Position numbers and translations under genes: made by a program. Shown here one piece after another: positions 12,193 through 63,190 of a stretch of DNA of 63,190 nucleotides. The stretch is from positions 294,309-357,498 of the forward strand of contig JBNGIO010006298.1 in assembly GCA_049999805.1 (NCBI GenBank). The letters run 5' to 3'. This stretch comes from Folioceros fuciformis. Its lineage: Eukaryota. The notes under the pieces were generated by a model, which did no database searches, was not told the origin of the DNA, and saw only the letters and a program-made list of their open reading frames with translations. Position 1 is the first letter of the stretch, and every line of letters begins with the position of its first letter.

Positions 12193-12228
12193 CAAGCCAT
12201 ATGAAAGCTTGTAGGGGCTAATGTACTT

Positions 12229-13060: not shown

Positions 13061-14690
<1,630 letters not shown>

Positions 14691-40493: not shown

Positions 40494-41272
40494 GCTTAGA
40501 GGCTAGATCATAAGCTTATAGGCTCCATCACAGGCTAACACACACGGTCGCCGGTTCACAGGCTCGATCATAGGTTCACATTCTCAATCACAAGCTCACA
40601 GTCTTGATCACATGCTAAGAGGCTTGATCACATGCTCAAAGGCTCGATTACATGCTCAAAGGCTCAATCACATGCTTAGAGGCTTGATCACATGTTCAGA
40701 GGCTTGATCAGATGCTCAATGCTCCATCACATGCTCATGTGCTCAATCACATGCTCGAAGGCTCCATCACAGGCTCATAGGCTTGATCACATGCTTAGAG
40801 GGTTGATTAGTACATGCTCAGAGGCTTGATCACAAGCTCGTAGACATGCTTATAGGCTTGATCACAAGCTTATTCCCTCAATCACATGGTCACACACTTG
40901 ATCACAGGCTCATGCTCGATCACAAGCACACGATCAATTACATGCTCACAAGCTCGATCGAAAGCTCAGAGGCTCGATCAGAAGCTCACAAGCTGGATGA
41001 TAAGCTCAGAGGCTCAATGACAAGCTCATAGTCTCAATCAAAAGCTCGTGGGCTCAATTATAGGCTCACAAGCTCGATCAAAAGCTTAGAGGCTTAATCA
41101 CAGGCTCACGAGCTCGATTAGAAGCTCAGAGGCTCGATCACTAGCTCAGAAGCACGATCAGAAGCTGAGAGGCTCGATCACAAGCTCACAAGTACGATCA
41201 AAAGCTCAGAGGCTCGATCACTGGCTCACTAGCACGATCAGAAGCTGAGAGGCTCGATCACGAGCTCACAAG

Positions 41273-41564
41273 TGAAAGGATCGCTAGAGGAGCATGGTGA
41301 AGGAGAGGAGAGGAGAAGGCAAGGAAGAGAGGAGAAAGAGAGGTCACACTCTCACATTGAGTCTCACAATACAAGGGATCTCAAGCAGGTATTTATACCC
41401 TCTAGAAGAGCTCCCTAGGAAGCTTCACAAGAAGCCCACAGGAAGCTGCACAAGAAGCCTCCTACAGATTAGCTTAAGCTAATCTAAACTAATGACACTT
41501 AACTAGACACTAATCTTAGACTAAATACATTAGTCTAAGCACATTGGGCTTTAATAACCCTACA
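41273..41564 (-). mobile_element. Solo LTR (292 bp)
   Basis: TG...CA termini; perfect 5-bp TSD ACAAG (41268-41272 and 41565-41569); TATAAATA on the minus strand near 41390. Confidence 0.85.
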
Positions 41565-43249
41565 ACAAGCACGATCACAAGTTGAGAGGCTCGATCACAA
41601 GGTTACAAGCACGATCAGAAGCTCAAAGGCTTGATCACAAGCTCACAAGCTGAATCAGAACCTCAAAGGCTCGATAGAAGGTCATAGGCTTGATCATGGG
41701 CACTTGTGCTAAACCCAATCGAGATGAGTAAGTGTTTGGCGCCACGACTCGGTGGGCACGCACACGTAAGTGCGTGGCCACACAACTTGGCCCGCACTCA
41801 CAAGTAAGTGTGTGGTGCCACAACTCAGTGGGCATACATATATTTATGTGCAGAATGAGGATAATGTTCTAAGAACTAGCAAAACAAAAAGAAATCCTGC
41901 TTTCTGGGAAATGGTGCACACTTGTGCGAGCCATAGCCTCAAAGTTTCACAATAGTCTTCCCCCTTATTTTTTCATTTTTTTTGTTTGAAAAGTTTGACT
42001 TTGTGATTTTTAACTTTTTTTTTTTGCACAATTTTATAATGAAAATATGAGTTTATACTGATTTATCTTTCTTTTCGCTTGATGGTCTAAACCTAGAACA
42101 AGTAGTAACGACTTTTAGCATGTTTTAGACCATGGGTTGTTTAGCTTAGGTCAGTCATAGAAATAACAACTAGAAGACATTGCATTTGCAAAAATTCCTA
42201 GTGATGGGCTTAGTCATCACATATAAGGACTCCCTTGGTCCCGACTATTATACAAGTAATATCTAAGTAGAGGTAAGAGTTTACACCTATGCATGGAAAA
42301 ATTATGTTTATTATAATATTTATTTTAACTAGGAATAGCTATGTATATATATTACAAATAGCTAGTTGATCGTAACATAGCTATAGAGTATCGCAACATG
42401 TACAGAACTTAAGGTTATTTATATGCACTAGCCAAATAGTTTTAGGTCAGTTATTGAACTCGTATTAGAGAGTGTTGTGAAACCATTGAAGCATGCTTGG
42501 CTCCTCGGAATGGATTATTTCCTATTATGTTTTGGGTAGTCCTATTTGGGGAGGCTGATTCACTGTGCAAGTGTGTGATTTCGAGATCAATAGTCTAACT
42601 ATCATGTGAGGACCCTCAATCTATTGCTGCATGCTATACAAACATCAAGCTTGCTACTCTTCAACAACTTATTGAGCGAGTGCTAGGAGCATGAGTGTGG
42701 GAGTTGCAAGTCAGTTATAAAGCCTTGTCTAATGAATACACCAAGTGAGTAGCGCTCTTGAAACTGTTGATACTCCTAGAATTGTTGTCCACTACATACA
42801 GTAGGTCAACAACACTCTTGCTCTTGGTCATTCCCTTTTTATTCAACTTGTTCGCATGAAGACATGCAACCTAATGAACATGTGATCAGCCCAAGATATC
42901 AATTGAGATCTTGTAACATTTAAGCTTGAATGTTACGTGTAACCAAAAGTGTGACAAACACCATGGTTTGTTGCCCTTAAGGAAAAATCACCTCCACTGA
43001 GGGAGAATATGCTTGGAGGAGGCAACAGCAATTTTAGGAGGATGTGGAAGCCAACATTGGACCGGATCCACCACCCTTAGCCATTCGTTCTGAAGGAGAG
43101 GAAGTGCCTAACATAAGCTAGATCCCTTTAGCACATTTCTAGGTTGTGCCATTCTTAGGACACTCTGGTATCCAACAGCTAGTGGCCCTATCACTTCTGA
43201 TAGACCCAGGTTAGGTATTGCAAGGATTTTGGCAACTTGAGGGAGGAGG

Positions 43250-43900
43250 TGCATACAAGATTGAGAAGTTCTCAAGAAGGCCTAACACCCAATCCTTGAG
43301 GGATTTCAAGCTTTTTCTCAATGCCGTCATCAACCAGCTGAAGTTTAAGTATGGTACATCGTATAACCTCTAGTATATGTTTGAGCATTTGTCTAACTTG
43401 TTGACAAATGAAGCATTGAATTTGTATGAGGCACACTGAGTTGATCTTTCTCCTACTATTGTCATGCCTAATCCAACAAAGTGCTTTACAGTTGGCTTAC
43501 AATGCCAAGTTGGAAGCAACAATCAATATTCATTAAGCATGCATTATTGCTGGCACTACTATTACTACTACACAGCTACCAACGATGCTGAGCTTGACTA
43601 CAATCGAAAGATTGGCAGCCATTGTGGGTGTAGGTGAATATGTGGACACCCTGAAATACATGAACCCAAGTGGAAGAGTTCATGGGAATCCTAGATGAAG
43701 CTTTGCCAATGAAGACTCCAGGTAAAATTGCAGAGCTTGCATCCTTTGCATGCAAGAAAGGGGAGGCAATGAAAATGACTTTTCGAAGGTTATAGGTGCA
43801 TGAAGGCACATGTATGCTTACAAACCAAGAGGTAGCAAAGAAATTATTGACAACACTAGAGGGGGATGTTATAGAATAATGGTGAACGCTATAGCTAATA
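43250..43900 (+). pseudogene. Decayed gag-like fragment resembling the downstream gypsy gag
   Basis: Manual translation SLRDFKLFLNAVINQLKFKYG...LSNLLTNEALNLYE and KIAELASFACKKGE parallels SLPNFEKKFRWALNEMVSKY...MSTFLSGEALTCY and EKI*ELAKFSTQPNE at 44.7-45.1 kb. Confidence 0.45.
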
Positions 43901-46900
43901 CCTACAATTATGAGTGGACAAGATGAAAACGTAGAATAATGGCAACAATAAAGGCATTCATGAGAATAACGGCTGATGGGAGTTGCGGGCCCGTCAGCAG
44001 TCATTGGGAAGGATTGCCCTTAAGATAAATAAGGGGCATCAGGAGAAGAAGGCAGATTGCCTGATGTCTACTAAGTAAGCTAGAAGCAGACGGATCCCAC
44101 AGGACAACATCTTGATGGTCATGAAGCACTGATTCTCCAGGTGAAAGAAAGGACCTTGAATACATCAGGCAATCCCTTGGCATCCAAATACCGGTGGGGA
44201 GCATGGTGAAATCGGGACGGAGGAAATTGAGATAACTCAAACACAAGGGTGTCTTGAGAAATACTCCGCAAAGGAGACACAAGTGGTCTCTAAGTGATTT
44301 ACCACGTGATGACAGATTACTCACGGTTGCGCTTTGCTGGCAAGACGATCTTGAAACTAGCCAGCATACTGGAGGTGGAACCATAAGAATTCTTGCAATG
44401 GCTATGGGTGGAAGTCATTGACCTCTTGTTGTGGCTAGCAGATTGGACAAAAGAGGGAACAAATGTTGATTTTGACAACATGCCATACATAGTGTCATGT
44501 AGAGGACGAGATGGTGTTTCTGCGATTAGGCTGGACCAACGAGAGCACACCTGAAACTAGCACCTACACCCTGAGTTCACCACACACTGTGATTCGTGGG
44601 TCATGAGGCGAGCGTGAGTGGAGTCGAAGCCCAACAAGGGCATTGAGCTTCGAGAAGCCAGAGCAAGTACAGTTAAGAATGGAGCACGAGCGAGTGCCCA
44701 GAAAGAACGACGTATTTACGAGCAAGCATGGTAGCATGTCACTTCCTAATTTTGAAAAAAAATTTAGATGGGCTTTGAACGAAATGGTATCAAAGTACAA
44801 GTCCAAATTCACCGCAGAGATAACACTGAGGAAGATGAGCACCTTCCTGTCTGGGGAGGCTTTGACATGTTACCATGATTGCAAGGAGAAGATCATAGAG
44901 GATTCACGTGCTTTGATGCACGGGGGCAGGATGAAAGGAAGCCTAATGGAGGATGGAAGCATGGGTGGTGCATCAACCTCAACGGAACCAGTCACATGCT
45001 TGGTCGACAACATGTTTCGAAAGTTCGCTGAGATGTTTCTGGTGTCATCGATTGAGAAGATCTAAGAACTTGCAAAATTTTCCACCCAGCCTAATGAACC
45101 ACTAAGGTTGGCCTATTTGTGGCTACGACAATTGGTAAAGGGCACCAAGGTGAAGACCACAAGGGAAGCCCCTCATATTTACATAGAGGAGTTATTTGGG
45201 AGGCAGAGGAGAGTCATTGCTGATTTCTTGCACATGTTACATGATGTTGAATATGAATTGGATCAAGCATATGAGATGGCGAAAAGGGTAATGAAGGGTG
45301 ATGCTGTCACTAACGTCTATTGGGAGGAGCACCATGTGCTGTGAACACCATTGCATGCTCAGGCAAAGAGGCAGGGACGATTCAGTTATCGTGAACCATC
45401 CCAAACCAATTTGCAAAGGAGAACATCTCCAGCAAATTAGAGAAGCGCCAACAACTCAGTAACAAGCAAGTCGGGAGTTAAATGTCCCAGGTGTCGGGGA
45501 ATGCATCGAGCCGTTGATTGTGACTAAAGGGAAGGCAGGTCAAAGGAAAGGGAAATCTGCAAGGTCATGTGGTAGGATGGGACATGCTGAAGCAGCATGC
45601 TGCAAATCACACCCCGAGCTCAGGCCCAAGGGATTGAGTGAAAGGAGTGTGCACAAGCCGGACACAATTGCCAGTTACTCACGAAGGGCGTTGCTCGGAG
45701 ATGTGCATAGGTTGTAAACACAATTGGCTATGGGGGTGAGTGAGAACAAGAATGTCGAGATGGGTGAGGAGGAATGCGACTCCGGGGATGAGATGTGCGC
45801 ACTCATAGCAGAAAAAATGAACTTCCCAAGAACAAGTGTGGAGTTTGGAGCAAGAGTGAAGGCTAAGCCATCGGGCATGCAGACGCAACCTAGCATGCCT
45901 TAGTCATTTTAGCAACTAGAAGAGGGAGTTGAAACGAGCATGTAAGAGAAACATCTGTCTGGTGATTAGATGTTTAAAGATATTATGAGCATGCCCGTGA
46001 TGAGCTTGCAAGATATGGGGTTCAAAGGTGTGCCACTCAAACGAGTCATACGTGCCTTGGTAAAATAGGAGCTGAACCAGATGGAGGTTTTCGCAGGAAT
46101 GCTGGGGTTATAAGGTGGCCATTTGAAGCCGAAAGCCAAGGGCAAAGGTGGCATTGCATTGGTGAAAAACCAAGGAAGCGAAGTTACACTCAATGGTTTC
46201 GCTCCATAAAATGTGTTGATTCACACTTATGCGAATCCAATCATCCTGGGAGCTAGGGTGCAAAGGGCGCTATAGTTGTTTGGGGAAAAGCTCATAGCCA
46301 GCGATGTGACGATCATGACCTCTACAGGCACTAAGGAACAAGTGCTGGGCATAACGAGGGAATCGATAAGCATCGAGTTCAAGTCAGGAACAACTGAAGC
46401 GTGCACCATGCGAGGGCAATGTTTGATATCAACAACTATGAATTATGAGGTGCTATTTGGAGCGGACGCCAGTCACGGGCCAGCCATGGGCGTGGACCCA
46501 CTACAATCTGTTGCATTCTACCAGTTGGGATGGCAACAGGGGGATTCTACGCGAGTGGCCATAATACCTCTGGAGATGACAAGGCGCAGTGACAGACAAA
46601 AATGTGTACCGACCAGCTTTTCCTATGCTACTCAAATCCCACATAGGGGAGACCTATGAGAGGAGACACTAGACCTCATGAGTGAAGAGGTAAGAAATGA
46701 GCGGGAAGGAAAAATTGTTCTCGCAAATTAGGAAACGCCCGTGCTGCGAAGCAGATTACATGCAGAATGACGGTGACCGAAGAGGTGAATGGATTGTAGT
46801 CCAAGCAGTATGTGCCTAGAGAATTGCTTGCCGAGGGCTAGGGTCTTAGGATTAAAGATGTGCTGATACAAAACTGTGTCATAGCTTGGAGACCAGGGGG

Positions 46901-46909
46901 TAAAGGAAA

Positions 46910-47845
46910 CACCTAATGGAGTTGTGTTCCAGAATTAGCAGTGGGCTGGAGGTGGTGTAGCGGTGTGGAATTCTGGTGAGGACGTATACGTGTGTAGAGC
47001 TAGATAACTATGCATGTGCAATGAACAAGGTACGCATACTTGGCCTACGAAAGGAATATCCCGACATGCTCGGCAAAGGAGCAATAAAAGGATGCTAGAG
47101 CCGTCTCGCACATGATACATAGATGGTCGGAAGGCAAAAGTTGATGGTATTTAGGTCACCTGTGGACATGCTACTAGCAGGATGGAAGTGCAAATCTTTG
47201 TCCAAAGCGGGCTAAGGAAACGAGGAACGACTAGATCAGGTGAGAGAGGTGATTCGAATCCTTAAAGAAGTATAGAGGATGAATCCTTCATGCTGGTACA
47301 TATTGGAGAATGTCTGTGAGGCCTTTGACCGGCAAGAACGAGTAAGAAAGGATTACAGTCAGCTACGAAAATCGTTGGGGAATGAATTCATTATCGACAC
47401 AGTGTAGACTGGTTCATAAGCACACCGCGTTCGTAGATTTTGAACAAACATTGCCAATGTGAAGATATTGAGGTAGCGCAGGAGGGCCACTCGACCTCCC
47501 GCACGACTGGTGAATGAAATTCTAGAAGACGGTCGCAAGGTGCAAGAGGTAAAAAGGGGAGACAACCCTCCAACTTTCTAGTCAACGTGGTGGGGGAACC
47601 AAGGAGGGCGTGGCCCACACTTGTAAGTAAGTCACAACCCTATGAATTTGGGCGCAATAGGATGGGGTGGTACTCAACCAGAAAGGTGAGGAAGTCGATG
47701 AGCCGCCAATCATGGAATGGGAGTGCGGAATGGGCTTCCGGACGAGCGCAATTGCAACCCAAGGAATCACAGAAGCCTACAAATGCAAGCTGGTGGGACA
47801 AGCGTACGACCTATGGTGTGTATAGTGGTTAATTTGTGTGGGTAT
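46910..47845 (+). pseudogene. Cytosine-5 DNA methyltransferase domain within the gypsy polyprotein (pseudogenised)
   Basis: Reading through stops: motif I-like LMELCSRISSGLE; II CVELD; IV VDMLLAGWKCKSLSKAG (Cys codon 47189-47191); VI YILENV (47297-47314); VIII GS*AHRVRRF*TN (47411-47449); IX/X EWECGMGF...KLVGQAYD. Canonical order and spacing, with two frameshifts near the end. Confidence 0.82.
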
Positions 47846-49513
47846 CATCACACAATTGATGAACTGTGTGCATCGAGGAATAACATACTTAGAAATCACA
47901 CGAAATGATAAGAGTAAGCTTGCATACGGACAAGAGGAGTTATGACGGAATGTATGTGGAGCAAAAACCAGTTCACGTAAAAAAGGGGCACCAGACAGGC
48001 ATGTTTGGCAAATATGTCAAGAGTTGGAGGAGGAGGATCAGCAAAAGATCCGATTGATGTTGGAGGAAAATCGACACGCCTTCGCATTTAGTTGGGAGGA
48101 GTTGGGTAGATATGATCGGATTAAGTTCCAAATCCTAACCAAGACTGATGAAACTGTGTATAGGCGAAGGCATCGCCTTAGTGCCATGGAATGGGATATC
48201 ATGGACTAGTGTTGTAAGGAGTTGGTAGCAGTAGGATTGATCCGGAAATCCACATCTCAATATGCTACTGCGATAGTCTTGCCTATGAAGAAGGATGAAA
48301 ACGGAGAGTGGACAAACAAACGCATGTGTGGAGACTATCGGGCGCTGAATGATGTGAGCCCTATGAAGAGGTACTCCATTCCCACACCAGATGAGATCTT
48401 TGATGCAATCGAAGAAGCAACTTATTTAATCACACTTGACTTTTGACCCGAATTCAATCATATAGTCATTGAGGAAGATCATAAATGTAAAACCGCCTTG
48501 TGGGGGAAAGATCAATTGTGGTAGTGGGAGACGATGCCGTTTGGATTAAAGAACACATTGAGGTACTTTCAGCAGGTAGCTGACATGAAGCTGCAGGGAC
48601 TGTTGTTTGTCAGGTGCTATATTAATGACATATTGGTGTTCAATAACATCTTGGAAGAGCATTTGGAGCATCTAAGGATGCTACTACAAAGGCTGGCTAG
48701 GTCAAGATTAAAGGCACACCCAAAGAAGTGTAAGTTTGCATATAAGGAGACTGAATACTTGGGACACAAGATTATTCCTAGTAGTGTGTTGCCGCAACTG
48801 GCTAAAGTTTAGGCAATCAACAACATGCCCAAGCCCAAAGGTGTGGCTACACTTAGAGCATTTTTAGGCTTGGTAAACTATTATCGAAGATTTATTCGAG
48901 ACATGAGCGTGGTGTGCCTGATGAAAATAGGGTGTTAATACATTAGGTTTCGTTTGGTGAATGCATTCATAGCTACTATAAGTCTAGGTGCCCGTTCATT
49001 TGGGTTACGTCCTTTATGAAAGGGTGTGTCTATTCACCCTACCTAGCTTAAGTTCAGTTATTTGTCTATGCTGTACATAATTATTTTTTAATCAATATAA
49101 TAATGTAATTGTTTTATAGCAATTGGTCTACACCAATTTCCATATTTTCTCATGGTATCAGAGCAAGGTTTAGGTGTAGATTACACTTGTGATAATGATT
49201 ATTAAAATCTGCACATTCTGATGTGCAGGACAATGTATTTTGTTTATATGTTTTATTGTTGCTTTCTTTTAAAGAAACTATTTTAAAACATACTTCAAGA
49301 AATAGGTTTATAGCTTTCTTGATTTTATATTTAGAAGATTTGCACTTCTAGTAGGTTGTTCTAGTGTATCCATTGTCAGATTGCACTCTAGCAATCTGGC
49401 ACTAGGCACGCTAGAACAACTGCCAGAATTGGCAAATATTTAATTATAGAATCATTCACAAAGTTACAATTGTTTCTTGAAAAATAACAAAATACAAAAG
49501 CTTGGCCAAATGA

Positions 49514-50209
49514 ATGGCCAATTTGGTGGACAGGCAGCAAGAGCGGCCACGCCCTGCTGAGCGCATCCAACAGAGGAATGGCCACAGAGGACAACGAATT
49601 CAAGAGGGCAGGTTGACTTTTGCAGAATCACTTTACCATCAAACTCTGGATTGGATTCTTCAAACACAAGACCATCCTGAACAATCCCGGCTGGTGAGAG
49701 ATTCCTTCAACAATCTGCTTGAGGCTATCTTCCCACAACAGCGCTATTTGTTGCTTCCTCCACCACCCAGGAATCAAATTAATCTTCCACCCATTGTAAA
49801 CGATAACCCTAGGGGTTTCTTGACAACACACACATCACCATATGTTAGTGTGTCACAATTAAATGCAAGAATAGAAACACTTCAATAGCATGTTGACGAG
49901 CGTTTTCAGAGCATTCGTCACAAGATAGCTGAAGTCAGTGTTGACTTGCAAGATTTGAAGGAACGTATAGGACATTTGGACTTCAAGTTGCTTACCTTGC
50001 TTAAGCCCGTTTTGCTAACAAATCCTGCACTTAGAGGTGTTGCTAACAAGAATTATAAACAACACACTTTTGACGCTCCAAATTCCTGTCCTTCATGCTC
50101 TGTTTATGCATTTAACAGATGGGAGATTAGACATCAAAGGATAGAAAATAGATTAGCAAATCAATAGGCCAATTTACCTCAAGTTGGTAGATTTGCTCAC
50201 CCCTTGTAG
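49514..50209 (+). pseudogene. Extra ORF upstream of gag in the copia element (~231 codons, two in-frame TAG)
   Basis: ORFs 49514-49888 and 49946-50167 share one frame, which continues to TAG 50207-50209; coiled-coil-like segment LNARIETLQ...LQDLKERIGHLD. Confidence 0.6.
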
Positions 50210-50217
50210 ATAGGGCT

Positions 50218-51547
50218 TGTGGAGTGATTTCTTGCACACCCAAGAACCACCAAGGGGCCACACTTCCCCTTATTATCGTTGCAGTCTTATGATTCGCTCC
50301 CAAGGGAGTGAACTAATGTCAAGGTTACTTACATCTCCCTAATCTCACCCTATCTATTAGCATATACCAAGTGCTACAGCAATAGATCAGAATTCTCGGT
50401 CCTGTCTTCGGCTCCTACCACAACACCAACCCTAGCCTCAACAAAATGAGAACTCCAGTATTGTCTTCAGCCCTCGTTTCCAACTCCAAGTATCAATCAC
50501 TTCAGTGCTGAGAGGAGGCTCCAGCCCCAAGTCTGGCCTCCAACTCTCAGCACCTAGTGCTAGCTACCTCCGCAGCTGAACGAGAACCTCAACTTCAGCT
50601 AGCTCCTCACTCCAGCTTCAACACTTCATTCCACCACTTCAGCACTTCACTCCAGTATTTCAGTCCTTCACTTCAGCACTTCAGTCCTTCACTTCAGCAC
50701 TTCACTTCATCCTCCAGCCCCTCACTTCAGCTCAACTCCTCACTTCAACACTTCCACTTCCAAAATCTGCAACTCAACCCCTCTCTCCTGCAATTTGGAA
50801 CACAACAGCCTTCCCTCTTGCAGCCTTCAAGGCAGAGACGAGGCCTAGGGCTGGGTAGCCTCCTTAGCTCACGGCCTTGCAACCTCACCTCAGCCAGCAT
50901 GCAAGGTGGTCAGCCATTGCGGATCAGGCCACACGAATCTTTGCAGTCTTGGGATCCTCTACGTTCCCCTAGTGGCAAGGGAAATCAGGACCTTGGTTTA
51001 GTCTCCACCAGCTCAGCGCCCTAAGCCAGGAGTTCTGCACCCAAGGTCCAGGGAAATCGCACCGTAGACAGCCCCCTCCTCAATGGCAGGTCTAGCCTCT
51101 TATACTACCTTGGCCCAAACCTCTATCTCTATCCATTAGGGTTAGCCTCAATCAATCACCCAGCAATCTCTCTCTGACCTAAGCCGCCCCTAATTCTGAC
51201 CTAAACCCGACTTTGACCTAACCCTAACTTTGACCCAAACCTAGTTCTGACCTAATAGGGGTTGTGTCCCATGGACACCACTGGGTGCCCTTACCAAAAT
51301 TGACCAACCTCTCAAGACTACCAAAATGGTCAGTGCCTCTCAACACTCTCCCTCCTCTCTCAAATCATTCCATCCCTTCTCTCAGATCATTCCAGTAACC
51401 CTTCAAAGATGCGTCTCGCCTCACCATTAATCTAGCTACTAATCTAACCTAATCTTTTAACCATTTCACCACAGGGTTCACTTAGAGATTCCCAAAAAGA
51501 GAAATCCTACTATTTTCCAAGGACCTATTCAGCATGTGGAGTCCACA
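50218..51547 (-). mobile_element. 1330-bp solo LTR nested in the copia 5' region
   Basis: Termini TGTGGA...TCCACA form a 6-bp inverted repeat; perfect TSD GGGCT (50213-50217 and 51548-51552). A TATA-like TATAAG on the minus strand near 51100 suggests the orientation. Confidence 0.85.
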
Positions 51548-51698
51548 GGGCTGCTCCTGCAGTTTATCTAAGATGCAACAGTAGCATCTTACCTCTTCCC
51601 AGTCTTTCACTTCAATTTGTACCTTGTCTGGATAGGCTACAAAGCTGCATACAGCCATTTCTCCTAACAGTTAGGATAGAATTACTACATTCTAATAA

Positions 51699-54600
51699 AT
51701 GGCAGACACCACTACTGTAGTTAGTGATATTTTTAAGGAGAAAGATAGATTTGGGGGGACTGACTATGACATCTGGGTCATGCGTATGAAAGGAGCCTTA
51801 CAAAGTAAGAAGCTATGGAAGATAGCAACAGGAAATGAATCACTTCCAACACCTACTGCATCTTCTGAATCTTCTCCTTCTTCTGCTGAAAAAAAAGATA
51901 CCAAGAAGCTTGGTATACAAAGGATGAAGCTGCAATGCACCTATTGAGAAGTGGACTAACCTCTGACATGCTGCGACAGACTTCTGGCTACAATACATCT
52001 TTTGAGATATGGACCTGATTACATGAGCTGTACGCAGGTGTTAATACCACAAGTCATATGAAAGCCCTTCGCAACATTCAAAATTGCAAAATGAGAGAAG
52101 GGGAGACAGTTGAAAAACATGTTGGGCATTTTAGAACACTTGTTTTTAAGTTAGAAAGTGCTTCACAGGAGGTTCTATCTGATGAGCTGCTTACCTTATA
52201 TTTCATGATGTCTCTCCCTGACTCATGGTCACACTTTGTGACATCTTACAATGCTTCTTAGCTACAGGCTTCAAAGATAGCTAAGGCTGCAGGTGTCACA
52301 ATACCACAGACAACATTTTCTAAGTTAGTGGGAGCTCTTCTTCAGGAAGAAGCTACAAGAGGACAAAACAGGTGTGCTGGCAAGCACCAGGCTATTTACA
52401 CCACAAATAAAAACAAGGGCACGAGGCCCAACTTCAAAGGTAAACAGAATACCTTTCAAGGTGCTGGTGCCTCACGGCGAGGGACAGCACAGAAGAAACC
52501 CAAGAAGTCTGGAAAATGCCACTGGTGCCAGATTCCAGGACATTGGGAAAATGAATGTCGAAAGAAGCAGGCCGGAGTACCTCGCAAGGAGGGCAACTCT
52601 ACTTCTGAGACACATGTTGTGGTGAAAAAGCAAGGCTCACCTTCTGCCCTTATAGTAGGGATTAGGAAGTTTGCATATCCTCTTGTTAAACCGACCTGTT
52701 TGTCTGCAAACACACAAGGTAAACCAGTCAGCGAGTGGTACCTTGATACAAGTGCAACACCGCACATATGCTTTGACAAAAATGCCTTTGTCACATACGA
52801 GTTAGTAGACAATCAGTTTGTTTACTTAGGTGATGACCGATCACTAGTGTCTCCAGGCAGAGGCATTGTAGAAATTCCAGTCCCTTCTGGAGTTACACTC
52901 ATATTGAAAGATGTGTACTATGTTCCAGAAATGACTAGGAATTTCATCTCTGTTAGGAGACTCAACATGGATAATAATACTTACATCCTATTTACTCCTA
53001 CAGAGTGTAGGATCATTGATGCCTTTGACCATCGTAAGATCCTAGCTTATGGGTCATCCTCACATGACCTCTTCCGTCTGCATACAGACAGCCATATAGC
53101 ACAAACACATTTAGCTTCTAAGTCTACAGAATCTACTAGTAAGTTAAAAGACAAAGCTAAATTATGGCATGCTCGCCTAGGTCACCCACATAGTGCTAAG
53201 TTACAGAAACTTGCACACAATGACCTGTATGCTGATGGAAAAATTGGCACATTGCCACCCTTACCTCTTTGTGAAGCCTGTGTTTTTTCCAAACGTCATC
53301 AGGCAGCTTTTAAGAATAAAGCTCCCTACAGGGCTTCAGAAGTTCTTGAGCTGGTTCACACAGACTTCTGTGTACCTCTCTCACAGCCTTCAATTAGTGG
53401 AGGCAAATATTTCCTGACATTCACAGATGACAAAACGAGGTTTTTCATTGCTTATATCCTGAAAGCCAAAAGTGAATGCTTTTCTCTCTTCAAAGGATAT
53501 ATGAAGTACACAGAACGCTGGACTGGCAAGCAGTTAAAAACCCTCAGATCAGATAATGGAGGTGAATTTACTTCTAGTGAATTCCAATCTTTTTGTACAG
53601 TAGAGGGAATAGGAAGGCAACTCACAGTTGTGTATACACCACAGCAAAATGGTGTGGCAGAACACTTGAATATGACCTTGCAGGAAATGACTTCCTCTAT
53701 GCTTCATCAAGCTTCTCTGCCCCTTCGCTATTGGGCTGAGGTCCTCATGACAGCAGCGTACTTGCATAACAGGCTGCCTACCAATGCCCTTGTAGGACAG
53801 ACCCCCTATGAAGCATTCTTTGGCAGAAAACCAGCTATCTTACACCTTAGAACCTTTGGATGCATAGCTTATGCATTTATCCCAAAGAAGAAACGTCCTA
53901 AGTTAGCTGCTAAAGCCAAGAAATATCTTGTGATAGGCTACACTAAAGGTATTAAAGCATATAAATTATATGATGTACCTGAGAACACTGTGGTTTATGC
54001 CCGCAGTGTTACTTTTGATGAACAACAAGTTTGGCAGCCAGTGGGAGCTTCTCCCACTTCTTCAGATAACTTTGATTTATCTGCTCTTCCTAACATCACT
54101 GTTTTCCCTGATTACCCTAATGAGGAGTTTGCTCCTGAAAGGGAGGAAGACAACGAGCACAGTGATAATGAGGATAATTAGCAGGAGGTTGCAGATGCTG
54201 AACTTGATTTTGCTGCTGATATTCAAGACCAACCTCCTCATGCCTTTTCGGATCCTGAACCCATTGTTCCAGCAGATGTTGAGCTTGATCCTGATCCTGT
54301 TGTTCTTGTGGATAGTGATCCTGAGAATATTCCAGCTCCTATTGAAGAGCCAGCTCCTATCCCTGTGCGTCATTATCCTACAAGAGACAGACGTGCACCA
54401 GATTATTATCAATCACAAGACTTTAGGGGACCTTCCATACATGCAGTTGATCTTGATCCTGTGGAACCTCAGACTTATGAAGAAGCCTTAAGTCGCCCTG
54501 ACGCTGCTGAATGGAAGAAAGCCATTCAATCTGAATATGAATCTTTGATAAAAAATGGAACATGGGAGTTAACTAAACTACCTCCAGGACGCAAGCCAAT

Positions 54601-56062
54601 ATCTTGCAAATGGGTGTTTAAGCTAAAGGTCAAGGTAGATGGTACCTTTGATCGTTATAAAGCCAGGCTTGTAGCCAGAGGCTTTTCTCAAATACCGGGC
54701 CTTGACTACCTTGAAACTTATGCTCCTGTTGTTAAGCTGGCCACATTTCGCACTATTTGTGCATTGGCAGCACACAATGATTATGAGTTGGACATGTTTG
54801 ATGTAAAGACAGCCTTCTTACATGGAAAGCTGGATACAGAAATTTACATGCAACAGCCACAAGGATACGAGGTGAAAGGGAAAGAAGATTATGTCTTACG
54901 TTTAATCAAGACCCTGTATGGTCTAAAACAATCAGCTCTTAAATGGAATGTTGTCTTGGATGAAGAGCTGCGAGCATTAGGCTTTGTCACATGTGTCTCA
55001 GATGGGAGCCTATATGTATACAGGACAAATGAAGTGGTTTGTTACCTGGCAGTATACGTTGATGACCTCATATTGGCTTGTAACAGTCCCACCTTCATCA
55101 AAGACATGAACAAGCTATTAGCAACCAAATTTGAAATGACACACTTAGGTGCCTTACAAAGCTGTCTTGGTATTCTAATTCAGCGTGACAGAAAGAAGAG
55201 AACTATCTCATTAACACAGCCACGTTACCTTCTTAGTAGTGCGGAACAACTTGGATTGAAGGATGTTAAACCTTCTGCAACTCCTTTGCCTTGTGGACTG
55301 AAGATGAGTAAAACCATGTGTCCTGATACACAATTAGAAAAAATGAAGATGAGTTTAGTCCCTTACAGACAAGCTGTAGGCAAACTCATATATGCAGCTA
55401 ACACCACTAGGCCAGAAGTAGCTTATGCTACTAGCGTCGTATCACAGTATCTGGAAAACCCAGGGCAAACACACTGGACAGGTGTTAAGAGAGTTTTCAG
55501 GTATCCAAAAGGAACTCACAGCATTGGTGTAAAATACAACCACATACCTGGAGTGCCCTTACATCTTGATGTCTATACTGATTCAGACTATGCTGGAGAT
55601 ATAGACACAAGGAAATCAATTTCTGATTATGTTGTTATGTTGGCTGGAGGTCCCATTTGCTGGTCCAGCAAGAAACAGCCTAATGTAGCCCTATCTAGCA
55701 CTGAAGTAGAATATCGGGTACTTACAGCTGCTGCAAAGGAGATAGCTTGGTGCAAGCTGATGTTCAAGGAACTTGGAATTCCCCTTCCAGCCTGCACCAC
55801 AATCCACACAGATAACCAAGGGTCTATGAGCTTGGCACATAATCCTGTTTTTCACTCCAGGACTAAACATGTGGAAGTTGAGTATCACTTTATACGCGAC
55901 CTCATCAAGTCTGGAGATATCAGCCTTGAATATGTGCCTACGTCAGAAAATCCAGCGGACATTTTAACCAAGCCCCTAGGAAGGGAGCTACATGAAAAAC
56001 ACATGAGAGTACTTGGCATGGGAAGCCATGAAGGCAATCCCACTGCCATGTCTAAGCCCTAG
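51699..56062 (+). pseudogene. Copia gag-pol polyprotein (gag, Zn knuckle, PR, INT, RT, RNase H) with a few lesions
   Basis: CHWCQIPGHWENEC, WYLDTSAT, LWHARLGH, LRSDNGGEF, YKARLVARGF, FDVKTAFLHG, LYGLKQS, YVDD, YTDSDY, RTKHVEVEYHFIR, ADILTK. Frameshift at the A-run ~51890; stops near 52016, 52259 and 54179. Confidence 0.95.
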
Positions 56063-56071
56063 CCTACCAGG

Positions 56072-57142
56072 CTATTCATAACCCCAATCAGGACTATCAT
56101 CATTGTCTGAATCTCCAGGAGGAGATTTAAAAGAACCCCTACTCTTTGAGGTGGTGGAATCACCAAGCTTCTCCCATGAAGCATATTCCACAGTGTCAGA
56201 GGAAAAGACTTCATTCTCCAAACGAGGAGACTGTCTCTTCTTCCTCTCCTTGTAGGAGATTCTGTCCTTAGATTCCAAGCTTTGCTCCTCCTCCAGTCGC
56301 TCTTCAGACCCTGTGAGGAGATAGTGGGAGCAAAGTCAGACAAGTGATGATAATTAGCAGGGGGTTAGGAAACAGTTATGCCACAAGCTACCATCAGCAA
56401 GAGGCTTACTGTAGAAGCTGATCATGTAGCCTTTACACTCCAAAAACATTTCAACCCTCACTCTCTTCATGGTGATGCCAGAAACTTGGCACTTGTACCA
56501 CAGCGGGCTGCCCGGCACTTCCCAAGTACTAGGTGTGATCACCTTGGTCTCTGACATGGCGTTCCTTGGAACTGGAAATCTTGGTGGAACTGGAGGACGT
56601 TGGTCAGCACCTTCGTACTCGAACTCACCTCGATTGAAGCGCCTCTGTTCCACAACAGCCCGTGAGTACATGAGCTCAGGAATGCGGCTCCTGGATAGGC
56701 CGCCCATAGCCTCGGCTCTCGAAGATTCGGCAGTCCTAGTCGCCGTCCTCCCTCGTGTTGTGCCTGAACCTTTGCCCGCATCCACAGCGCCTGAAGAACG
56801 TGTTGCTGGAGTTGCTGTAATCTAGCCAGCTGTCTTCCCACCTGTGATGCTGGAAAGACGAAAGCTTGGAGGGGAGACGGAGAGTCCGGATGTCGCGATG
56901 TCGCGCCGCTGGCTCAAGCTTGCTCTGGTAGTGCCTCGCGGCCGCCCCCACGATCTCCTAACGCCGCTAGCTCCTCCTCCTCGTGTGTGTGTCTCTGGCT
57001 GCTGTGCAGGTTGATGCTCTTCCGCCCATGCTCCAATGGCAATTGTTCTAGCCACAGGGGATGTGATGAACCTTCCTGCAGAGTCCCGGTGGTATGTGCG
57101 CCGCTTGGCTGCTAGAGCATCATCAGACCCTGAAGACGCCAT
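56072..57142 (-). pseudogene. Antisense ORF (~356 codons, three in-frame stops) between pol and the 3' LTR of the copia element
   Basis: ORF-track pieces 56822-57376, 56354-56785 and 56072-56278 are in one frame; ATG at 57142 (MASSGSDD); stops TAG 56822, TAA 56354 and TGA 56336. Confidence 0.6.
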
Positions 57143-57925
57143 TGTTACTTTCCTCAGCCTTTGCTCAACGAGCTTTATTGCCAAAAGGCATGGGACGTAA
57201 ATAGTAGCTACAAGAAGTGCGAACCTGTAGACGGTCGCCTTCACACACAGTAGCGCCACCTTGAGCCTACGCCCCAAAGTACACACAAGGATCGCGAGGT
57301 TCTCAGCTGGAGTCACAGTCTCCACAACTCTGAACATAGTGGAGGGGAGGAAAACCGACCCCATAATGATTAACAAGTGGGAGTGATGAGAATAGGGTGT
57401 TAATACATTAGGTTTCGTTTGGTGAATGCGTTCATAGCTACTATAAGTCTACGTGCCCGTTCATTTGGGTTACGTCCTTTATGAAAGGGTGTGTCTATTC
57501 ACCCTACCTAGCTTAAGTTCAGTTATTTGTCTATGCTGTACATAATTATTGTTTAATCAATATAATAATGTAATTGTTTTATAGCAATTGGTCTACACCA
57601 ATTTCCATATTTTCTCAGTGCAAACCGTTGCATGAGTTGCTCAAGAAGGGTGTGTCATGGTGCTGGGGTTCGAGTCAAGAGCAGGCATGGCAAGAGCTGA
57701 AAGAGCAACTTTCGGAAAGACCAATGCTGAGCTGACCGGACATTGGAAAGACGTTTGTTGTGTACACAAATTGGAGTGCTGCATGATTGGGAGCAATCTT
57801 AGCACAGATTGACGCTAGTGGAAAAGAGCGAGTGGTGGCCTATGCCAACAGATCCAATAACTCAGCTGAGGCGAATTACTCTACATACGAAGGAGAGCGC
57901 CTAGCTAGAGTTTGGGGAGTCTTAC

Positions 57926-58090
57926 TGTAAAGTTACACATTAATAATATATTCCAAAAAGTGTCATGTATATACCACATATACCAAAAGTCATGTCTCTT
58001 CAACTAACCTACACTAACAACCCTAACTCTACCTGTGGATATGTTTATAAGACATAAACCCTAACAAAATAGAACGGGTTTATCCTAACA
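57926..58090. mobile_element. 165-bp solo-LTR-like insertion in the gypsy RNase H
   Basis: TGTAA...TAACA termini; perfect TSD CTTAC (57921-57925 and 58091-58095). Removal restores WGVLHFMVYLFG. Confidence 0.85.
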
Positions 58091-58141
58091 CTTACACTTC
58101 ATGGTGTATCTATTCGGTTGGAACTTTCAGCTGGTTACACA

Positions 58142-58264
58142 TCACCAACCATTGCATCGGCTAATCACCAACCATTGCATTCGGTACTCACCAACCATTG
58201 CATTGGGTACTCACCAGGCGTTGCATTGGGTACTCACCAATCGTTGCATTGGCTACTCACCAAC
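58142..58264. repeat. 23-bp minisatellite, about 5.3 copies, inside the gypsy RNase H
   Basis: tcacca at 58142, 58165, 58188, 58211, 58234 and 58257. Confidence 0.9.
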
Positions 58265-59578
58265 ATGAAGCTCAATGAAAAGCTTACCCGGTAGGCACTT
58301 CTACTCTCAGAATACGACGTTGAGATTATACACGATGCAAGGAGGACGATCTAGCCCTAGTGATCACTATTGCACGAGAGCATGGTCAACTCGTAGAGTC
58401 TGGGAGAGACATATGGAAATGCAGCCAATGCATACAATTACTAAAAGATGGTCACATTGGTGGTGTCAATGAAAGCACCAAGAAGAAGTTGAGGAAGTGT
58501 ATCAATCGATATTCTTGGAAGGATGGCAAGATATTTGTCACAGACTAAGGCATCACAAAAGAGGTGTTTTCAATGATGAGCAGAGAAGGAGTTGTAACAG
58601 AGGTACGCAACAGACTGGGTCACTTTGGAGTCAAAAAGACTCATCACATAGTCAAAGCCGTATTTTCGTGGAGAGGCATGCACAGCGGCGTTGAACAAGT
58701 TGTAGCCAAGTGTGCTGCTTGTGATGCAGTGAAAGCGAGATTCGGAGGGCAAGATCATGTGTTGCATTCACTTCCTATATGTGGATTGTTCTGTAGGTGG
58801 TCTGTTGACCTCATGCCTAAGCTCTTGATGACCGCTCAAGGCAACAAACATTGCATGTTGATAATTGAGCATTTCTCATTATACATCCAGGGCGTTCTTA
58901 CAACGCGTTCTCAGGCGATTTGGAAGTTGTGTGGAAGTACTGATGGATTAATGGAATGAATTTTGAGGAGAATTCCAAGTGTTGCTTGATCAGAGTCTCA
59001 TTGACCATCGTCGCTCCTTGCCAGATCATCCACAGGTAGATAGGTTAGTGGAAAGGTTAGTCCAGACTTTTAAAAATGCATTAATGAAATATTGTAGGGA
59101 GGTGGAACCCAAGTGTTGGGACGAATTGCTGCCATATGTGGTCTTGGGCTACGGAGTGAGTGTTCAGGTAGCATTGGGCAAGTTCAGCTCATATTTCATC
59201 ATGTTCAGGCGGAATGCAGTCGTGCTAAACATCGTGGCTGACTCGTACTCCAAACCAATGAATTGGGCTGGAAACTCTCAGAATTGAGACCAGTTGAGAT
59301 ACACTTTCACTAGGGGTGGATCATGGAAGCCCAAACCTTGGAAATTTGAAGTGGGTGACTTTGTGTATCTACAGCATAGGCCCACCAACACTCTTGATGT
59401 GAGCACTAGTCATTTGATTTTACGAGTTGTGAATGTGGGGGAAATGGGTGTAATCAAATTGGAAGGGCGGGACACATGAAGGTGTAGGGAGCATCTCAAA
59501 CACTTGGCTCCTTGCCATTTGCCCAATCTAGATACCAAGTTGCAATTGCAAGCTTGGAAACCTCCGATAGATTTTCAT

Positions 59579-59713
59579 TGTGAACAGTGTGGACAAACAA
59601 CCAATGAAGAGTTGATGCCATTGTGTGACGGATGCAATTGAGGGTATCACATATTTTGTGTTAAGCCACCGTTGCTGGCAATGCCGGAGGGAGAGGGGTT
59701 TTGTTCAGAATGC
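59579..59713 (+). pseudogene. PHD finger (C4HC3) at the C-terminus of the gypsy integrase
   Basis: CEQC-x11-CDGC-N*GY-H-IF-C-VKPPLLAMPEGEGF-CSEC; all eight Zn ligands present, one TGA. Confidence 0.9.
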
Positions 59714-60409
59714 AAGCAGTTGGCACATAAGTCAAAATCGAAGAGTGTAGCACGAGGTCAAGGAAACAGGATGCAAAGGGAACATGCTGGGAGCAGGAAT
59801 GAGAATCTAGAGCTATTGGACATATATCATTGAAATGTGTCCGGGCTCTTGGTGTTTGTGGCTATGAGCTAATTCGGGCATGCGAAGTAGGATTAGGTAG
59901 GAAGTTGGCCTAAAAATGATAAGTGAATGACAACATGAAAGCAATGGATAAGGGGCAAAATAGTGAGCATAGCATTTCATTTTCACTTTGGCGGCTGATG
60001 TGCTAGATGGCGGTAACGCTTAAAGGTTCAAACAAATAGCAGGGTGGATATTTGCTGTGGGCGCTTAGGGAAGGCAAATCGTGGACCTCTAAGGATAACA
60101 GAAGATCAACTGCACGGAGGCCGAATCAATCTACAAAAAGTGTGAGGGTGGCGGGCAAGTGGTACAGTAGTGTTGAGTTGCACAAAGGGAGAAATGGAGG
60201 CTTTACACGGGAAAGACAAGATGCCTGCTCTTGAGGTGGAAGACGTTGAGGTGCTGCTGAACAGCAATGGACACAAGAGGATGTGTTCGAGTTGTGAGTA
60301 GAGCAATCCTCCCCAACGACCTTGTCCAGGAACCCCAATTTGTGGACAACAAAGTGGCGGAGAAGTGGACGCAGTAGTTTGTGAGAAGATACTAGCTAGA
60401 AAAACCCAT

Positions 60410-61251
60410 GATGCCAACCATGTATGCGGAACTCAGTAAATTTCTATTGTTTGTAGAAGGAGATCACCTCGCATGTCCCATTGAGTATTACCCCATTGAT
60501 CACCGTGACCTGTTTGAGCTCCAGCAGAAAGGATATAAGAATTTGCCCTAGGTATGGACTACTTACTATGAAGGTGCCTATAGGAAATTGAACACCATAT
60601 GTTCCTTCACCACTTTTTTTTTTTCGCGAAGAAAAGGATTTTGATTAATAGTTTCATCCTCTTACAATACTAAGGGGACCCCTGCCTACGTATTTACATA
60701 GCATGAGTACCATGATCGGGAGAGAAAAAATCGACCTCGTGTCCAACCCTCTGGACAGGACTCGGAAAATGCTCCCCATCACCTTGATATTCCTTCACCA
60801 CTTGTTTGATCACTTGCCATTAGATGCGTTTAAGACATATGGCCCCGCTGAATTTTCCAGGAATATGAGAAGTCTCAAACGCTGGTTTGTGCACTTTCAT
60901 GCACACCGCGCAAATAGGCATGTGCTGGGATGGCCTCGTCAATTCTATGCTCCTACTAATTTTGTTAGGATGGGCAACCTGCTATGGATGGAGAAGACCC
61001 ATGGACAGTTTCAAGGGCTATTACAGTCGTGTCAAGAGTACCTTCAGGCACGTAACTCTCATATGGTGGTGCCAAAAATCCCTCTGAAGGTAGAACCTAG
61101 CAGTGAGGGAGAGGGTGAGCAGTCTTCTCAAGCATACCGCCCAGACTCTGAATCTGAGGATGAAGAGAGTGATGCGTATGAGGAATCGGTACAGCAACAT
61201 CTACACTCAATTCTAAACAATTTTTATAAGTGGTGGCTAGGCAATTGGTGA
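60410..61251 (+). pseudogene. Decayed ORF of unknown function downstream of the gypsy pol
   Basis: The 182-aa ORF 60703-61251 extends upstream through two stops (REEKDFD**FHPL) and across a poly-T frameshift (~60614-60624) into MPTMYAELSKFLLFVEGDHLACPIEYYP...; acidic tail. Confidence 0.4.
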
Positions 61252-63190
61252 GGTGGAAGGCTTGTCACTGAAATGACTGAAGTGAGGCTCTGAAGTGTGC
61301 CACGACTTTCAGACAAGGGTGCTGATTAGTAGCTGATGTTTAGTGATTGAACTTGTGGATCCTCAAGGATGAGGAATAGGCTGTGTGTTTTTGTGAATAA
61401 GTGTCCATGACAACTCTACAGCCTCGATGGCGCGATAAGGACCCCTTGTTTCACTTTCAGCTTGTCACCTCCCTAGTGGACAAATATGGTGATAGGTGTA
61501 CACTTGAGTAGGTCCATGAAGAAGTAGAGCGTAAGGAGATTGCATTTTCTCCCTATGCTTTCTATCATTCCAAGACTTTTACTCATTATCACTTCATATT
61601 CAATAGCAAGGGAATAACTGGTGGGCTTGGGACTGGAGGCTCAGCCACGAGCAACCACGCCAAAACAACTAAGGTCAATGGTATAGTAACTTCAGAGATC
61701 ACATGCAATCAATGTGAGAGTCTCGAGGTCTTGGCATAAACGCACAAGTGTCCTTCATAAGGATTGGTGTGCGCACATTGCTACTGGGCAGGTCACCTTG
61801 AAATAGTGTGCTTTTAGAAGCATAGTGAGTGCCACAACTAACAGGTAGGGGCCTTAAATGTAGTAAGAACAAGCGCCAACATAAGTGCTTTAGAAGGTTC
61901 ATCAACAAGCCTAGCCACAGTTTCACATAGAAAAGAGCAGCACCTTAAGGTCAAGGCCAAAGGGATGGCAACGAGTGAAAAAATTGCCTCCCTTGAGTCA
62001 TCCATTGCAGCCCTCACCAAGATTTGAGCACACTTGTGGCTAGTCTCAACTCTGTTGCTTCAACTCTGCACATCGTGGAGCTTTCTTTGACTCCCACCAT
62101 ACTTGCAACAATCCCAGTATTGGAGACTAAGTAGTCCAACGGTCACCTTGCACGACAAGCCCAATTCTAAGCATGCATAATACCCATGTAGCTAGAAGAG
62201 CATGGAACAACTATAACGCAGCACATGGAGCTAAAGCATCAAGTGGTTTATCCAAGTGCAAGAGTGGTCTAGCAGCTTCATCGACAATGGTGGTAGGTTG
62301 GCCCTTTGTCATTTATTGCCATCACATATAGGAGCGATAGATAGGTATGAGAGCATAGATCCAACTAAAAATAAAGCTTTAAAGGATAGTCTTTATGAGC
62401 ATTGAATATAGGGTATGTGATCTAAGGCTGGCAAATAAGGAATAAAATCATTGTTATGTTCTACTAATTCTTGGTAATTCGGATGTTCATGCCTCTAAAT
62501 CATGGTCCTTTCTTAGTTTGGTATGCAATGTCCTATGATTTGGAATCCATCTCCACATACCTTTGTTGTGGGAATACTCTTTTAAAACTCGATGTTCCAC
62601 TCCATATGATGGTTAGTTGGGCATGGATATGTTTTGATTGTAGATTTATGCTAGAGCGATGATCTTGGCTATCACGAAGTATTGTATCACACCTAAGATT
62701 TTACTTAAACAAGACTCTTTGGTATTGGGTCAGAACATGGGGATTTACCACTGGATTAAAATGTATAATTTATGCCCAATTTGCATACAAGGTATGAAAT
62801 TCAGGTTTTGTGGTTTTGTGTAAAAAAATTGGGGTTACTAGAGAAACCTTTCTCTACTATGATCTTGTTTTCTCGTTTCTACTATGAGTGCTGAACACAA
62901 CTTCAACGGTTTGTTGATTATGACCCTTAAGAGAGCTGGATGGTTGATTACGTTACTTGAAGCACAACTTATTGCATTATTCAAGTCTTAAGAATGGAAT
63001 TCTCACCAAGACATTAATACCTTAAGCATAAGGTGCTTAAGATACTAATGTGTAAAGGATTGAAGAACTTGTATTAGGGTATATTTTTTAGGTGTGATGC
63101 CTTCCGAAGCATTCATGTTGACTGGGTTTGAAGCGTAATCAGTGTGATTCCAGGGTACAGTGCAATGATTGAGGGACTGAAAGGCAACGT

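Follow-up and report, generated by a model that had tools for sequence, protein, structure and literature searches.

Does the retroelement remnant at 44.6-59.8 kb (plus strand) of a Folioceros fuciformis contig (JBNGIO010006298.1, assembly GCA_049999805.1) carry a chromatin-writing and a chromatin-reading domain in one polyprotein? The window, meaning the whole 63,190-nucleotide stretch of DNA analysed (contig positions 294,309 to 357,498), had been given a sequence-only reading in which gag, a protease (PR), a DNA methyltransferase (DNMT), reverse transcriptase (RT), RNase H, integrase (IN) and a PHD finger formed a single product once nested insertions were removed. The region is a long-dead, inactive Ty3/gypsy copy that does nothing at this locus now, and its original Pol order, as given by alignment to intact relatives, is PR, a DNMT3-like C5-methyltransferase, RT, RNase H, IN and PHD finger. 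With a probability of just under 80%, we read the locus as a dead copy of the Gypsy-DNMT3 kind, in whose intact relatives the PHD finger would tether integration and the DNMT would methylate the element itself. The enzyme part of this design was already published in 2018 and the DNMT-in-gypsy kind is thus not new; what merits follow-up is the conserved writer-reader pairing, the alternative placement of the DNMT in other relatives and the large number of family members.

The alignment rests on P0003, an intact 2358-aa single open reading frame (ORF) found by RT-seeded search, in which Pfam places PR at residue 663, DNA_methylase at 953, RVT_1 at 1443, RNase H at 1660, Integrase_H2C2 at 1925, rve at 1996 and PHD at 2300. 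In tblastn comparisons, P0003 is collinear with the window through residues 652-795, 952-1184, 1214-1645 and 1646-1767 and onward to residue 2355 at position 59746. Across the large nested insertion that divides the remnant into a left, DNMT-bearing arm and a right, PHD-bearing arm, the alignment stops after residue 1645 at 48917 and resumes with residue 1646 at 57622. P0001, P0002 and P0004 align in the same collinear manner, and these four proteins are the nearest relatives of both arms; the circumstance that the sequence-only reading had named as fatal to it, arms belonging to different families, was therefore not encountered. The window copy shows the Ty3/gypsy order of PR, RT, RNase H and IN with RT and RNase H of gypsy type, and 226 gypsy-type proteins match its RT at E<=1e-5, among the closest relatives P0001 (residues 480-784) at 49% identity and E 5e-90 by tblastn. 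With the nested insertions taken out and the family compared, the proposed single-ORF order is present in P0003, and the same order recurs in 13 metagenome loci.

The copy is one collinear pol, but it is not one open frame. The Pol remnant has 25 in-frame stops per 1362 aligned codons and at least four frameshifts, and the tblastn alignment with P0003 changes frame between PR, DNMT and RT and within IN. Active sites have decayed in PR (HTYA for DTGA), in RT (YIND for YIDD) and in motif IV of the DNMT. Domestication of the copy by its host was considered and rejected because of the 25 in-frame stops.

Three later events split the element, namely insertion of a young copia, insertion of a 165-bp element with TG..CA ends, and expansion of a 23-bp unit by 92 bp. 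The copia is flanked by long terminal repeats (LTRs) with TG..CA ends that are 98.3% identical over 234 nt, and these 4 differences make it far younger than the gypsy copy in which it sits. A putative primer-binding site, TGGTATCAGAGC, begins directly after the 5' LTR at 49153, and the 5-bp flanks, GTGCC at 48914-48918 and GTGCA at 57618-57622, match at 4 of 5 positions. By Pfam, its ORFs at 52262-54181 and 54182-56062 encode Pol_BBD, gag_pre-integrs, rve, SH3_retrovirus and RVT_2, with rve in the first ORF and RVT_2 in the second, which is the Ty1/copia order. Once the copia and one copy of its flank are excised, ..FIRDMSVVC runs on into QPLHELLKKGVSWCW without a change of frame, in the linker between RT and RNase H, and the status of the copia as a nested insertion is secure. 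The 165-bp insertion lies within RNase H, and its excision joins ..VWGVL to HFMVYLFGWNFQLVTHHQPLHRL, again in frame. It had been called a solo LTR; that it is an insert is borne out by its ends, its target duplication and the restored frame, but because no second copy occurs in the window or in 80 metagenome loci, we only infer that it is a solo LTR, which it probably is. The 23-bp tandem array at 58142-58264 (5.3 copies) duplicates the coding sequence of the RNase H motif HQPLHWL, and its four extra units (92 bp) explain the frame change between the two tblastn pieces of the second RNase H part (Table 1).

The decayed DNMT segment of the window is recognised mainly through its relatives. Pfam detected no DNMT at E<=0.01 in stop-read-through translations of the window frames, PF00145 matched the segment weakly (E 0.016, 15.1 bits, cut-off 22), comparison with solved structures gave chance matches only (E >= 0.15), and a word-based search with this decayed query against longer proteins of up to 2000 aa gave no match. 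In a phmmer search of 1.84 billion proteins, counted as representatives at 50% identity, the 222-aa segment (with X at stops) matched 395 representatives at E<=1e-3, of which 152 reached E<=1e-10, the best at 5.1e-24 over residues 2-221. Motifs I, IV, VI, VIII and X are readable in this order in the window, and the same domain stands in the single ORF of P0003, so that a non-rearranged DNMT3-type domain lies within a gypsy Pol ORF. When the P0003 domain was compared with solved structures, DNMT3C, DNMT3A and DNMT3B were nearest (E 4e-9 to 2e-8), followed by M.HhaI (1e-5) and DRM (5e-4 to 0.4), and DNMT1 was not among the 52 matches; the AHRxRxxWxNL and ERxxGFP stretches align with the DNMT3 structures. 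Judged by these matches, the DNMT of the family is DNMT3-like. Among 11 aligned relatives, conservation is at least 90% at the catalytic Cys, at the ENV and RxR positions and in motif X.

The PHD finger of the window retains all eight zinc ligands and contains one in-frame stop, and its frame terminates at the stop 59831-59833. Pfam recovered it from stop-read-through translations to the right of 57617, besides RT_RNaseH (2.5e-13), RT_RNaseH_2 and Integrase_H2C2. The best solved matches of the family PHD are the first fingers (PHD1) of Lid, KDM5A, KDM5B and KDM5D (E 4e-17 to 1e-14), with further matches to CHD4, PHF21A, AIRE, BAZ2A/B, KAT6A/DPF3 and UHRF1. These fingers read the H3 tail in its unmodified state, and unmethylated H3K4 is the ligand of the ADD domain found in DNMT3A and DNMT3L. 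Trp is found two residues before the zinc-binding His in 0 of 99 family PHDs, and in 87 of the 99 two or more acidic residues stand near the start of the first loop; we take the former to be the position of the aromatic-cage Trp, and both features presumably bear on H3K4 reading. Within Pol, the finger occupies the integrase C-terminus, the place of the chromodomain in chromoviruses.

The pairing of the two domains was then counted across the family. The DNMT region of P0003 matches 106 proteins with lengths of 1296-4127 aa and E values no higher than 4e-24, and PF00628 is listed in 68 of them. Six P0003 domains were mapped on 365 fetched proteins, of which 252 contain a DNMT-like segment. Where such a segment was accompanied by an integrase with at least 250 aa after it, a PHD was present in 102 of 109 proteins, compared with 1 of 56 DNMT-less gypsy proteins of the same set, a contrast that is descriptive, as the counts come from kin proteins in a biased sample gathered by similarity. 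The co-occurrence of DNMT and PHD in intact relatives, on which the sequence-only reading depended, is in this way established, and the sequences compared mark the pairing as a conserved design.

Two arrangements of the DNMT are found. In the first, that of the window, the DNMT precedes RT; it is represented by 28 PR-DNMT proteins and by 20 others in which RT or RNase H was also matched, and its named sources are the streptophyte algae Closterium sp. NIES-53, NIES-54 and NIES-68. A Coleochaete scutata transcript encodes an RT-to-PHD protein. In the second, the DNMT lies between RNase H and IN (P0138, P0164, P0187, P0199 and about 130 others), the commonest full form being RT-RNase H-DNMT-IN-PHD (79 proteins), and the named sources are the chlorophytes Haematococcus lacustris and Monoraphidium neglectum. 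By the criterion above, the PHD is present in 4 of 7 proteins of the first arrangement and in 98 of 102 of the second. The Monoraphidium protein has a weak Tudor-like match after the PHD (PF21743, 23.8 bits, below the cut-off of 27.2). P0202, a 1974-aa RT-RNase H-DNMT-IN-PHD protein, carries the source label of a 'Minisyncoccia bacterium' metagenome-assembled genome and is most likely from a eukaryotic retroelement contig that was wrongly binned. About 15 clusters of 1330-1458 aa (P0122-P0136) mostly end directly after the DNMT, giving gag-PR-DNMT, from which RT, RNase H and IN may lie in a separate frame in some families; P0134 and P0135, unlike most of these clusters, extend into RT.

Trees of the DNMT and of RT were built with FastTree, both with no outgroup and from biased sampling. 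The DNMT tree, built from the window and from the 205 of 252 segments that reach a length of 280 aa, places the window and all 40 before-RT sequences in a 50-leaf clade (support 0.997) that includes 0 of 132 after-RNase H sequences, and the neighbours of the window are P0003, P0222 and P0223. In the RT tree of 227 proteins with at least 200 aa of RT and the window, the window falls in a group of 14 that joins generic gypsy elements and is split from the other arrangement (support 0.963). As the RT tree leaves the two DNMT placements ungrouped, the DNMT and PHD pair may have moved between RT lineages.

No P0003 relatives were found in the searched genome-contig and viral-contig collections. A metagenome scan retained 80 loci, mostly decayed; 22 contain the DNMT, which precedes RT in every case, and 13 of these carry a PHD on the same strand as well. 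With blastn, both window arms had 0 matches to these 80 loci at E<=1e-10, so the loci are relatives at the protein level only and cannot supply the termini of the window copy. Three of them (L001, L005 and L015), which encode a DDE integrase, have split direct repeats in the layout A1 ... G-run B1-A2-B2, in which the A repeats (about 290-313 bp) are 84-89% identical and the B repeats (138-178 bp; present in 3 of 3 loci examined) are 88-93% identical; a flanking A repeat was found in 4 of 14 loci examined. Their outer ends are TG..CA, and the joined ends are reproduced at the B1/A2 junction. The LTRs and target-site duplications expected from the sequence-only reading did not appear: target-site duplications are not evident at the ends of these three loci, whose boundaries are uncertain by a few bases, and searches around the window copy found no LTRs.

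Among known systems, the closest in kind is KnitGypsy-Dnmt3 of Klebsormidium nitens (K. nitens), for which de Mendoza et al. 2018 (PMC5890265) describe a DNMT3-type domain in a gypsy Pol and, in the legend of figure 4c, split direct repeats. The family shares with it a non-rearranged DNMT3-type domain in a gypsy Pol ORF, DIRS-like split direct repeats (in L001, L005 and L015) and, for named relatives, a streptophyte-algal host. The main text of that paper leaves a PHD finger unmentioned and does not spell out a domain order, and the window copy is dead, with no recognisable termini. We assign the window copy to the Gypsy-DNMT3 kind because of its DNMT3-like domain, its streptophyte relatives and the split direct repeats of three related loci, that is, by shared features; a K. 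nitens protein was not among the named matches in the family searches.

Other retroelements share part of the design. The EpiLTRs of Cymbomonas and Euglena, presented as new in a preprint (bioRxiv 10.64898/2026.05.21.726589), likewise combine a cytosine methyltransferase with a chromatin reader in a gypsy Pol; they also carry an adenine methyltransferase, and have a chromodomain reader and a DNMT that is sister to DNMT4 and lies at the 3' end of pol in Cymbomonas, and they are separated by the authors from 'streptophytes (Gypsy-DNMT3)'. The present family has a PHD finger as its reader and a DNMT3-like DNMT that, in the window, stands between PR and RT, and Pfam detected neither an adenine methyltransferase nor a chromodomain in the window frames or in P0003. 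Chromoviruses also have a histone-reader domain fused to the integrase C-terminus and serve as the model for targeted integration, the integration of gypsy elements being directed by chromodomains (Gao et al. 2008, as described in passages citing it); here a PHD (PF00628) occupies the chromodomain place, the expected ligand differs, and no chromodomain (PF00385) was found by Pfam in the window, P0001-P0004 or P0011. SymbioDIRS-Dnmt3 of Symbiodinium is alike in its DNMT3-type domain in a retrotransposon Pol and its split or DIRS-type repeats, and according to the main text of PMC5890265 its DNMT methylated CG de novo in yeast; it is a DIRS element of an alveolate with a tyrosine recombinase, whereas in the window family the integrase is of DDE type and the RT of gypsy type. 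Published accounts describe PHD fingers as widespread among retrotransposons. The Chlamyvir clade was considered as a PHD carrier and ruled out, since it has a chromodomain instead. In the accessible portions of the literature on DNMT-bearing retrotransposons, we did not find a description of a gypsy element pairing DNMT3 with PHD, nor of the RNase H/IN placement of the DNMT in chlorophytes or of a family of this size.

Beyond retroelements, the pairing resembles that of animal DNMT3, in which a reader of unmethylated H3K4 is joined to a DNMT3-type writer, if the family finger belongs to that class of reader. The reader here is a PHD and not the ADD of DNMT3A and DNMT3L, and in P0003 about 1200 residues separate the DNMT from the PHD. 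In intact relatives, the PHD on the integrase would hold the integration machinery at nucleosomes whose H3 tails are unmethylated at K4 and so steer insertion away from active promoters, and the DNMT3-like domain would put methylation on the cDNA or on the newly inserted copy, in line with the proposal of de Mendoza et al. 2018. Self-methylation as such is not a new idea: the published hypothesis (in the main text of PMC5890265) already has the cDNA methylated on reverse transcription. Chromatin targeting by the PHD combined with marking of the copy by the DNMT is a plausible hypothesis. The fossil in the window has in addition led to a family far larger than the one in print, extending through Closterium, Coleochaete, Haematococcus, Monoraphidium and many metagenome contigs, in which the methyltransferase domain and the histone-reader finger travel together in nearly every full-length member. 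With the intact ORFs P0003, P0002, P0187 and P0199 as starting material, it becomes testable whether a transposon is able to select the chromatin state of its copies and write it itself.

Several observations weigh against this interpretation, and they are considered here together with the alternatives that they favour. Motif IV of the window reads WKCK, and among the 252 DNMT-bearing proteins this motif (residues 1039-1044 in P0003) reads AGWECQ in 127, with Glu replacing the canonical Pro before the retained catalytic Cys, compared with AGWPCQ in 70; in the other 55, it has another residue or the pattern was not found. Even intact members score low with the Pfam DNMT profile (20.9-32.5 bits; cut-off 22), and the yeast assay of the K. 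nitens Gypsy-Dnmt3 domain described in the main text of PMC5890265 yielded no methylation, a result that its authors call inconclusive. On these grounds, the domain might be no working DNA methyltransferase, but a pseudo-enzyme, a nucleic-acid-binding module or an enzyme acting on RNA or on the RNA:cDNA hybrid for replication. This is the best placed of the alternatives and is nonetheless unlikely, given the conservation of the catalytic Cys, ENV, RxR and motif X noted above and, as that same text reports, a Ka/Ks below 0.2 with conserved key residues in the K. nitens copies and the equal silence of human DNMT3B in the yeast assay.

The placement of the two domains raises a further difficulty. 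In the window arrangement, they stand at opposite ends of Pol and, by analogy with the usual cleavage, would come to lie on separate mature proteins. The finger could then have a role other than the choice of sites, either regulating the element's own DNMT or recruiting host chromatin factors in an ADD-like manner, or acting in nuclear import or particle assembly. The commoner RNase H-DNMT-IN-PHD arrangement would suit regulation of the DNMT, as there the DNMT directly precedes the integrase and PHD and both could share one mature protein, and the near-absence of the finger from DNMT-less proteins suggests a functional tie. We regard these roles as improbable, as the integrase C-terminus is where targeting chromodomains sit in the elements described in the literature passages available, the DNMT is far from the PHD in the window arrangement, and common descent alone may account for the co-occurrence. 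Two other points against the proposed mechanism concern its traces in print and in the sequence composition: the term 'PHD' has 0 occurrences in the main text of PMC5890265, whose figures or supplements may show the finger, and the observed/expected (o/e) CpG ratio of the element, 0.49-0.62 compared with 0.34 in the nested copia and 0.38-0.43 in the flanks, reveals no depletion specific to the element.

Lastly, no LTRs or inverted or split repeats link 41000-44800 to 59600-63190, so no terminal repeats tie the two arms. That these arms are fragments of two elements juxtaposed by the copia insertion and rearrangements, for which a weak gag-like fragment upstream would also speak as the sign of a rearranged neighbourhood, is hardly credible in view of the consecutive P0003 residues and the in-frame junction with its near-perfect target duplication at the copia, the common nearest relatives of both arms, and the identical order within one ORF and in the 13 metagenome loci. 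The upstream fragment itself, at 43269-43876 on the plus strand, matches two correctly spaced stretches of P0003 gag, residues 62-114 and 196-255, at E 0.006-0.37 and may be a remnant of another family copy.

With the single dead Gypsy-DNMT3-kind copy retained as the reading of the locus, a broader proposal can be made for the family. The PR/RT placement is that of a lineage in which split direct repeats occur and the members that bear names come from streptophyte algae, and the named members with the RNase H/IN placement are chlorophytes. We advance as possible, though doubtful, that a large gypsy group of the green lineage has kept a DNMT3-type writer and a KDM5-PHD1-like reader of unmethylated H3K4 through both DNMT placements, following the logic of ADD-DNMT3. 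Should the pairing be functional, such elements would find H3K4-unmethylated chromatin, methylate themselves there and fix their epigenetic state on their own rather than leaving it to the host.

Table 1. Positions of the features of the gypsy copy and its nested insertions in the window, and of the split-repeat relatives in their own loci.
Feature	Position	Strand	Evidence or detail
Gag-like region, two open pieces (weak)	44607..45344	+	tblastn, P0121 110-176 to 44712-44903, E 0.008
Gag CCHC zinc knuckle remnant CGRMGHAEAACCKSHPELRP	45568..45627	+	P0122 390-409, E 0.009; P0003 403-417, E 0.28
Aspartic protease, active site decayed	46153..46584	+	P0003 652-795, 32% identity, E 4e-12 and 1.35e-13
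DNMT3-like C5-methyltransferase, N-terminal two thirds, 9 in-frame stops	46913..47578	+	P0003 952-1184, 31% identity, 103 bits
DNMT motifs	I ELCSRISSG 46919; IV LLAGWKCKS 47171; VI YILENV 47297; VIII AHRVRRF 47420	+	Read by order
DNMT C-terminal part, different frame; motif X LVGQAYDLW 47790	47664..48015	+	P0003 1214-1645 to 47664-48917
RT, C-terminal end cut by copia; YxDD decayed to YIND	48003..48917	+	RVT_1, E 9.5e-17
Nested Ty1/copia	48919..57617	+	LTRs 48919-49152 and 57384-57617
RNase H, first part	57622..57924	+	RT_RNaseH_2, E 7.8e-22; P0003 1646-1767 to 57622-57993
165-bp insert, TG..CA ends	57926..58090		Perfect 5-bp duplication CTTAC, 57921-57925 / 58091-58095
RNase H, second part, with 23-bp array	58096..58339	+	tblastn pieces 58095-58172 and 58235-58339
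Integrase, internal frameshift; H2C2 ~58582-58737, DDE core	58408..59290	+	Integrase_H2C2, E 3.2e-10; P0003 1866-2031, 2041-2355
PHD finger C4HC3 at integrase C-terminus	59579..59713	+	PF00628, E 1.6e-6, 28.5 bits, cut-off 24
Split-repeat relatives	L001:4209-14612; L005:159-8728; L015:733-11824		A1 ... B1-A2-B2

The first part of RNase H carries on the RT frame after removal of the copia. At the opposite end of the element, the order claimed by the sequence-only reading stands from PR to PHD, and its gag is a weak assignment: Pfam matched no family to the gag-like region, P0003 residues 61-224 match 44712-45098 by tblastn at E 1.1, and the tblastn E values obtained for gag and its zinc knuckle (0.008-0.28) refer to a 5-kb search space. 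The zinc-knuckle remnant is placed between gag and PR, in the expected order.

The surroundings of the copy contain further repeats and host genes. A 20-bp satellite with the consensus TCACAGGCTCGATCACATGC forms two arrays at 36020-37364 and 40242-41700 that are about 65-75% alike by blastn and share a unique 240-bp segment (82% identity), located after the first array and before the second. Downstream of the element, at 60652-61251 on the plus strand, is a 199-aa open frame that ends in an acidic tail and has no Pfam match. Host genes on the plus strand encode an S-adenosyl-L-homocysteine hydrolase at 12848-14463 (AdoHcyase, E 2e-101) and a transketolase at 21614-24949, and the CpG o/e of the host genes is 0.73-0.87, compared with 0.34-0.62 in the repeats. 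Directly upstream of the hydrolase gene, at 11912-12579, are tandem direct repeats, 84-92% identical, whose units measure about 141 bp or about 95 bp.

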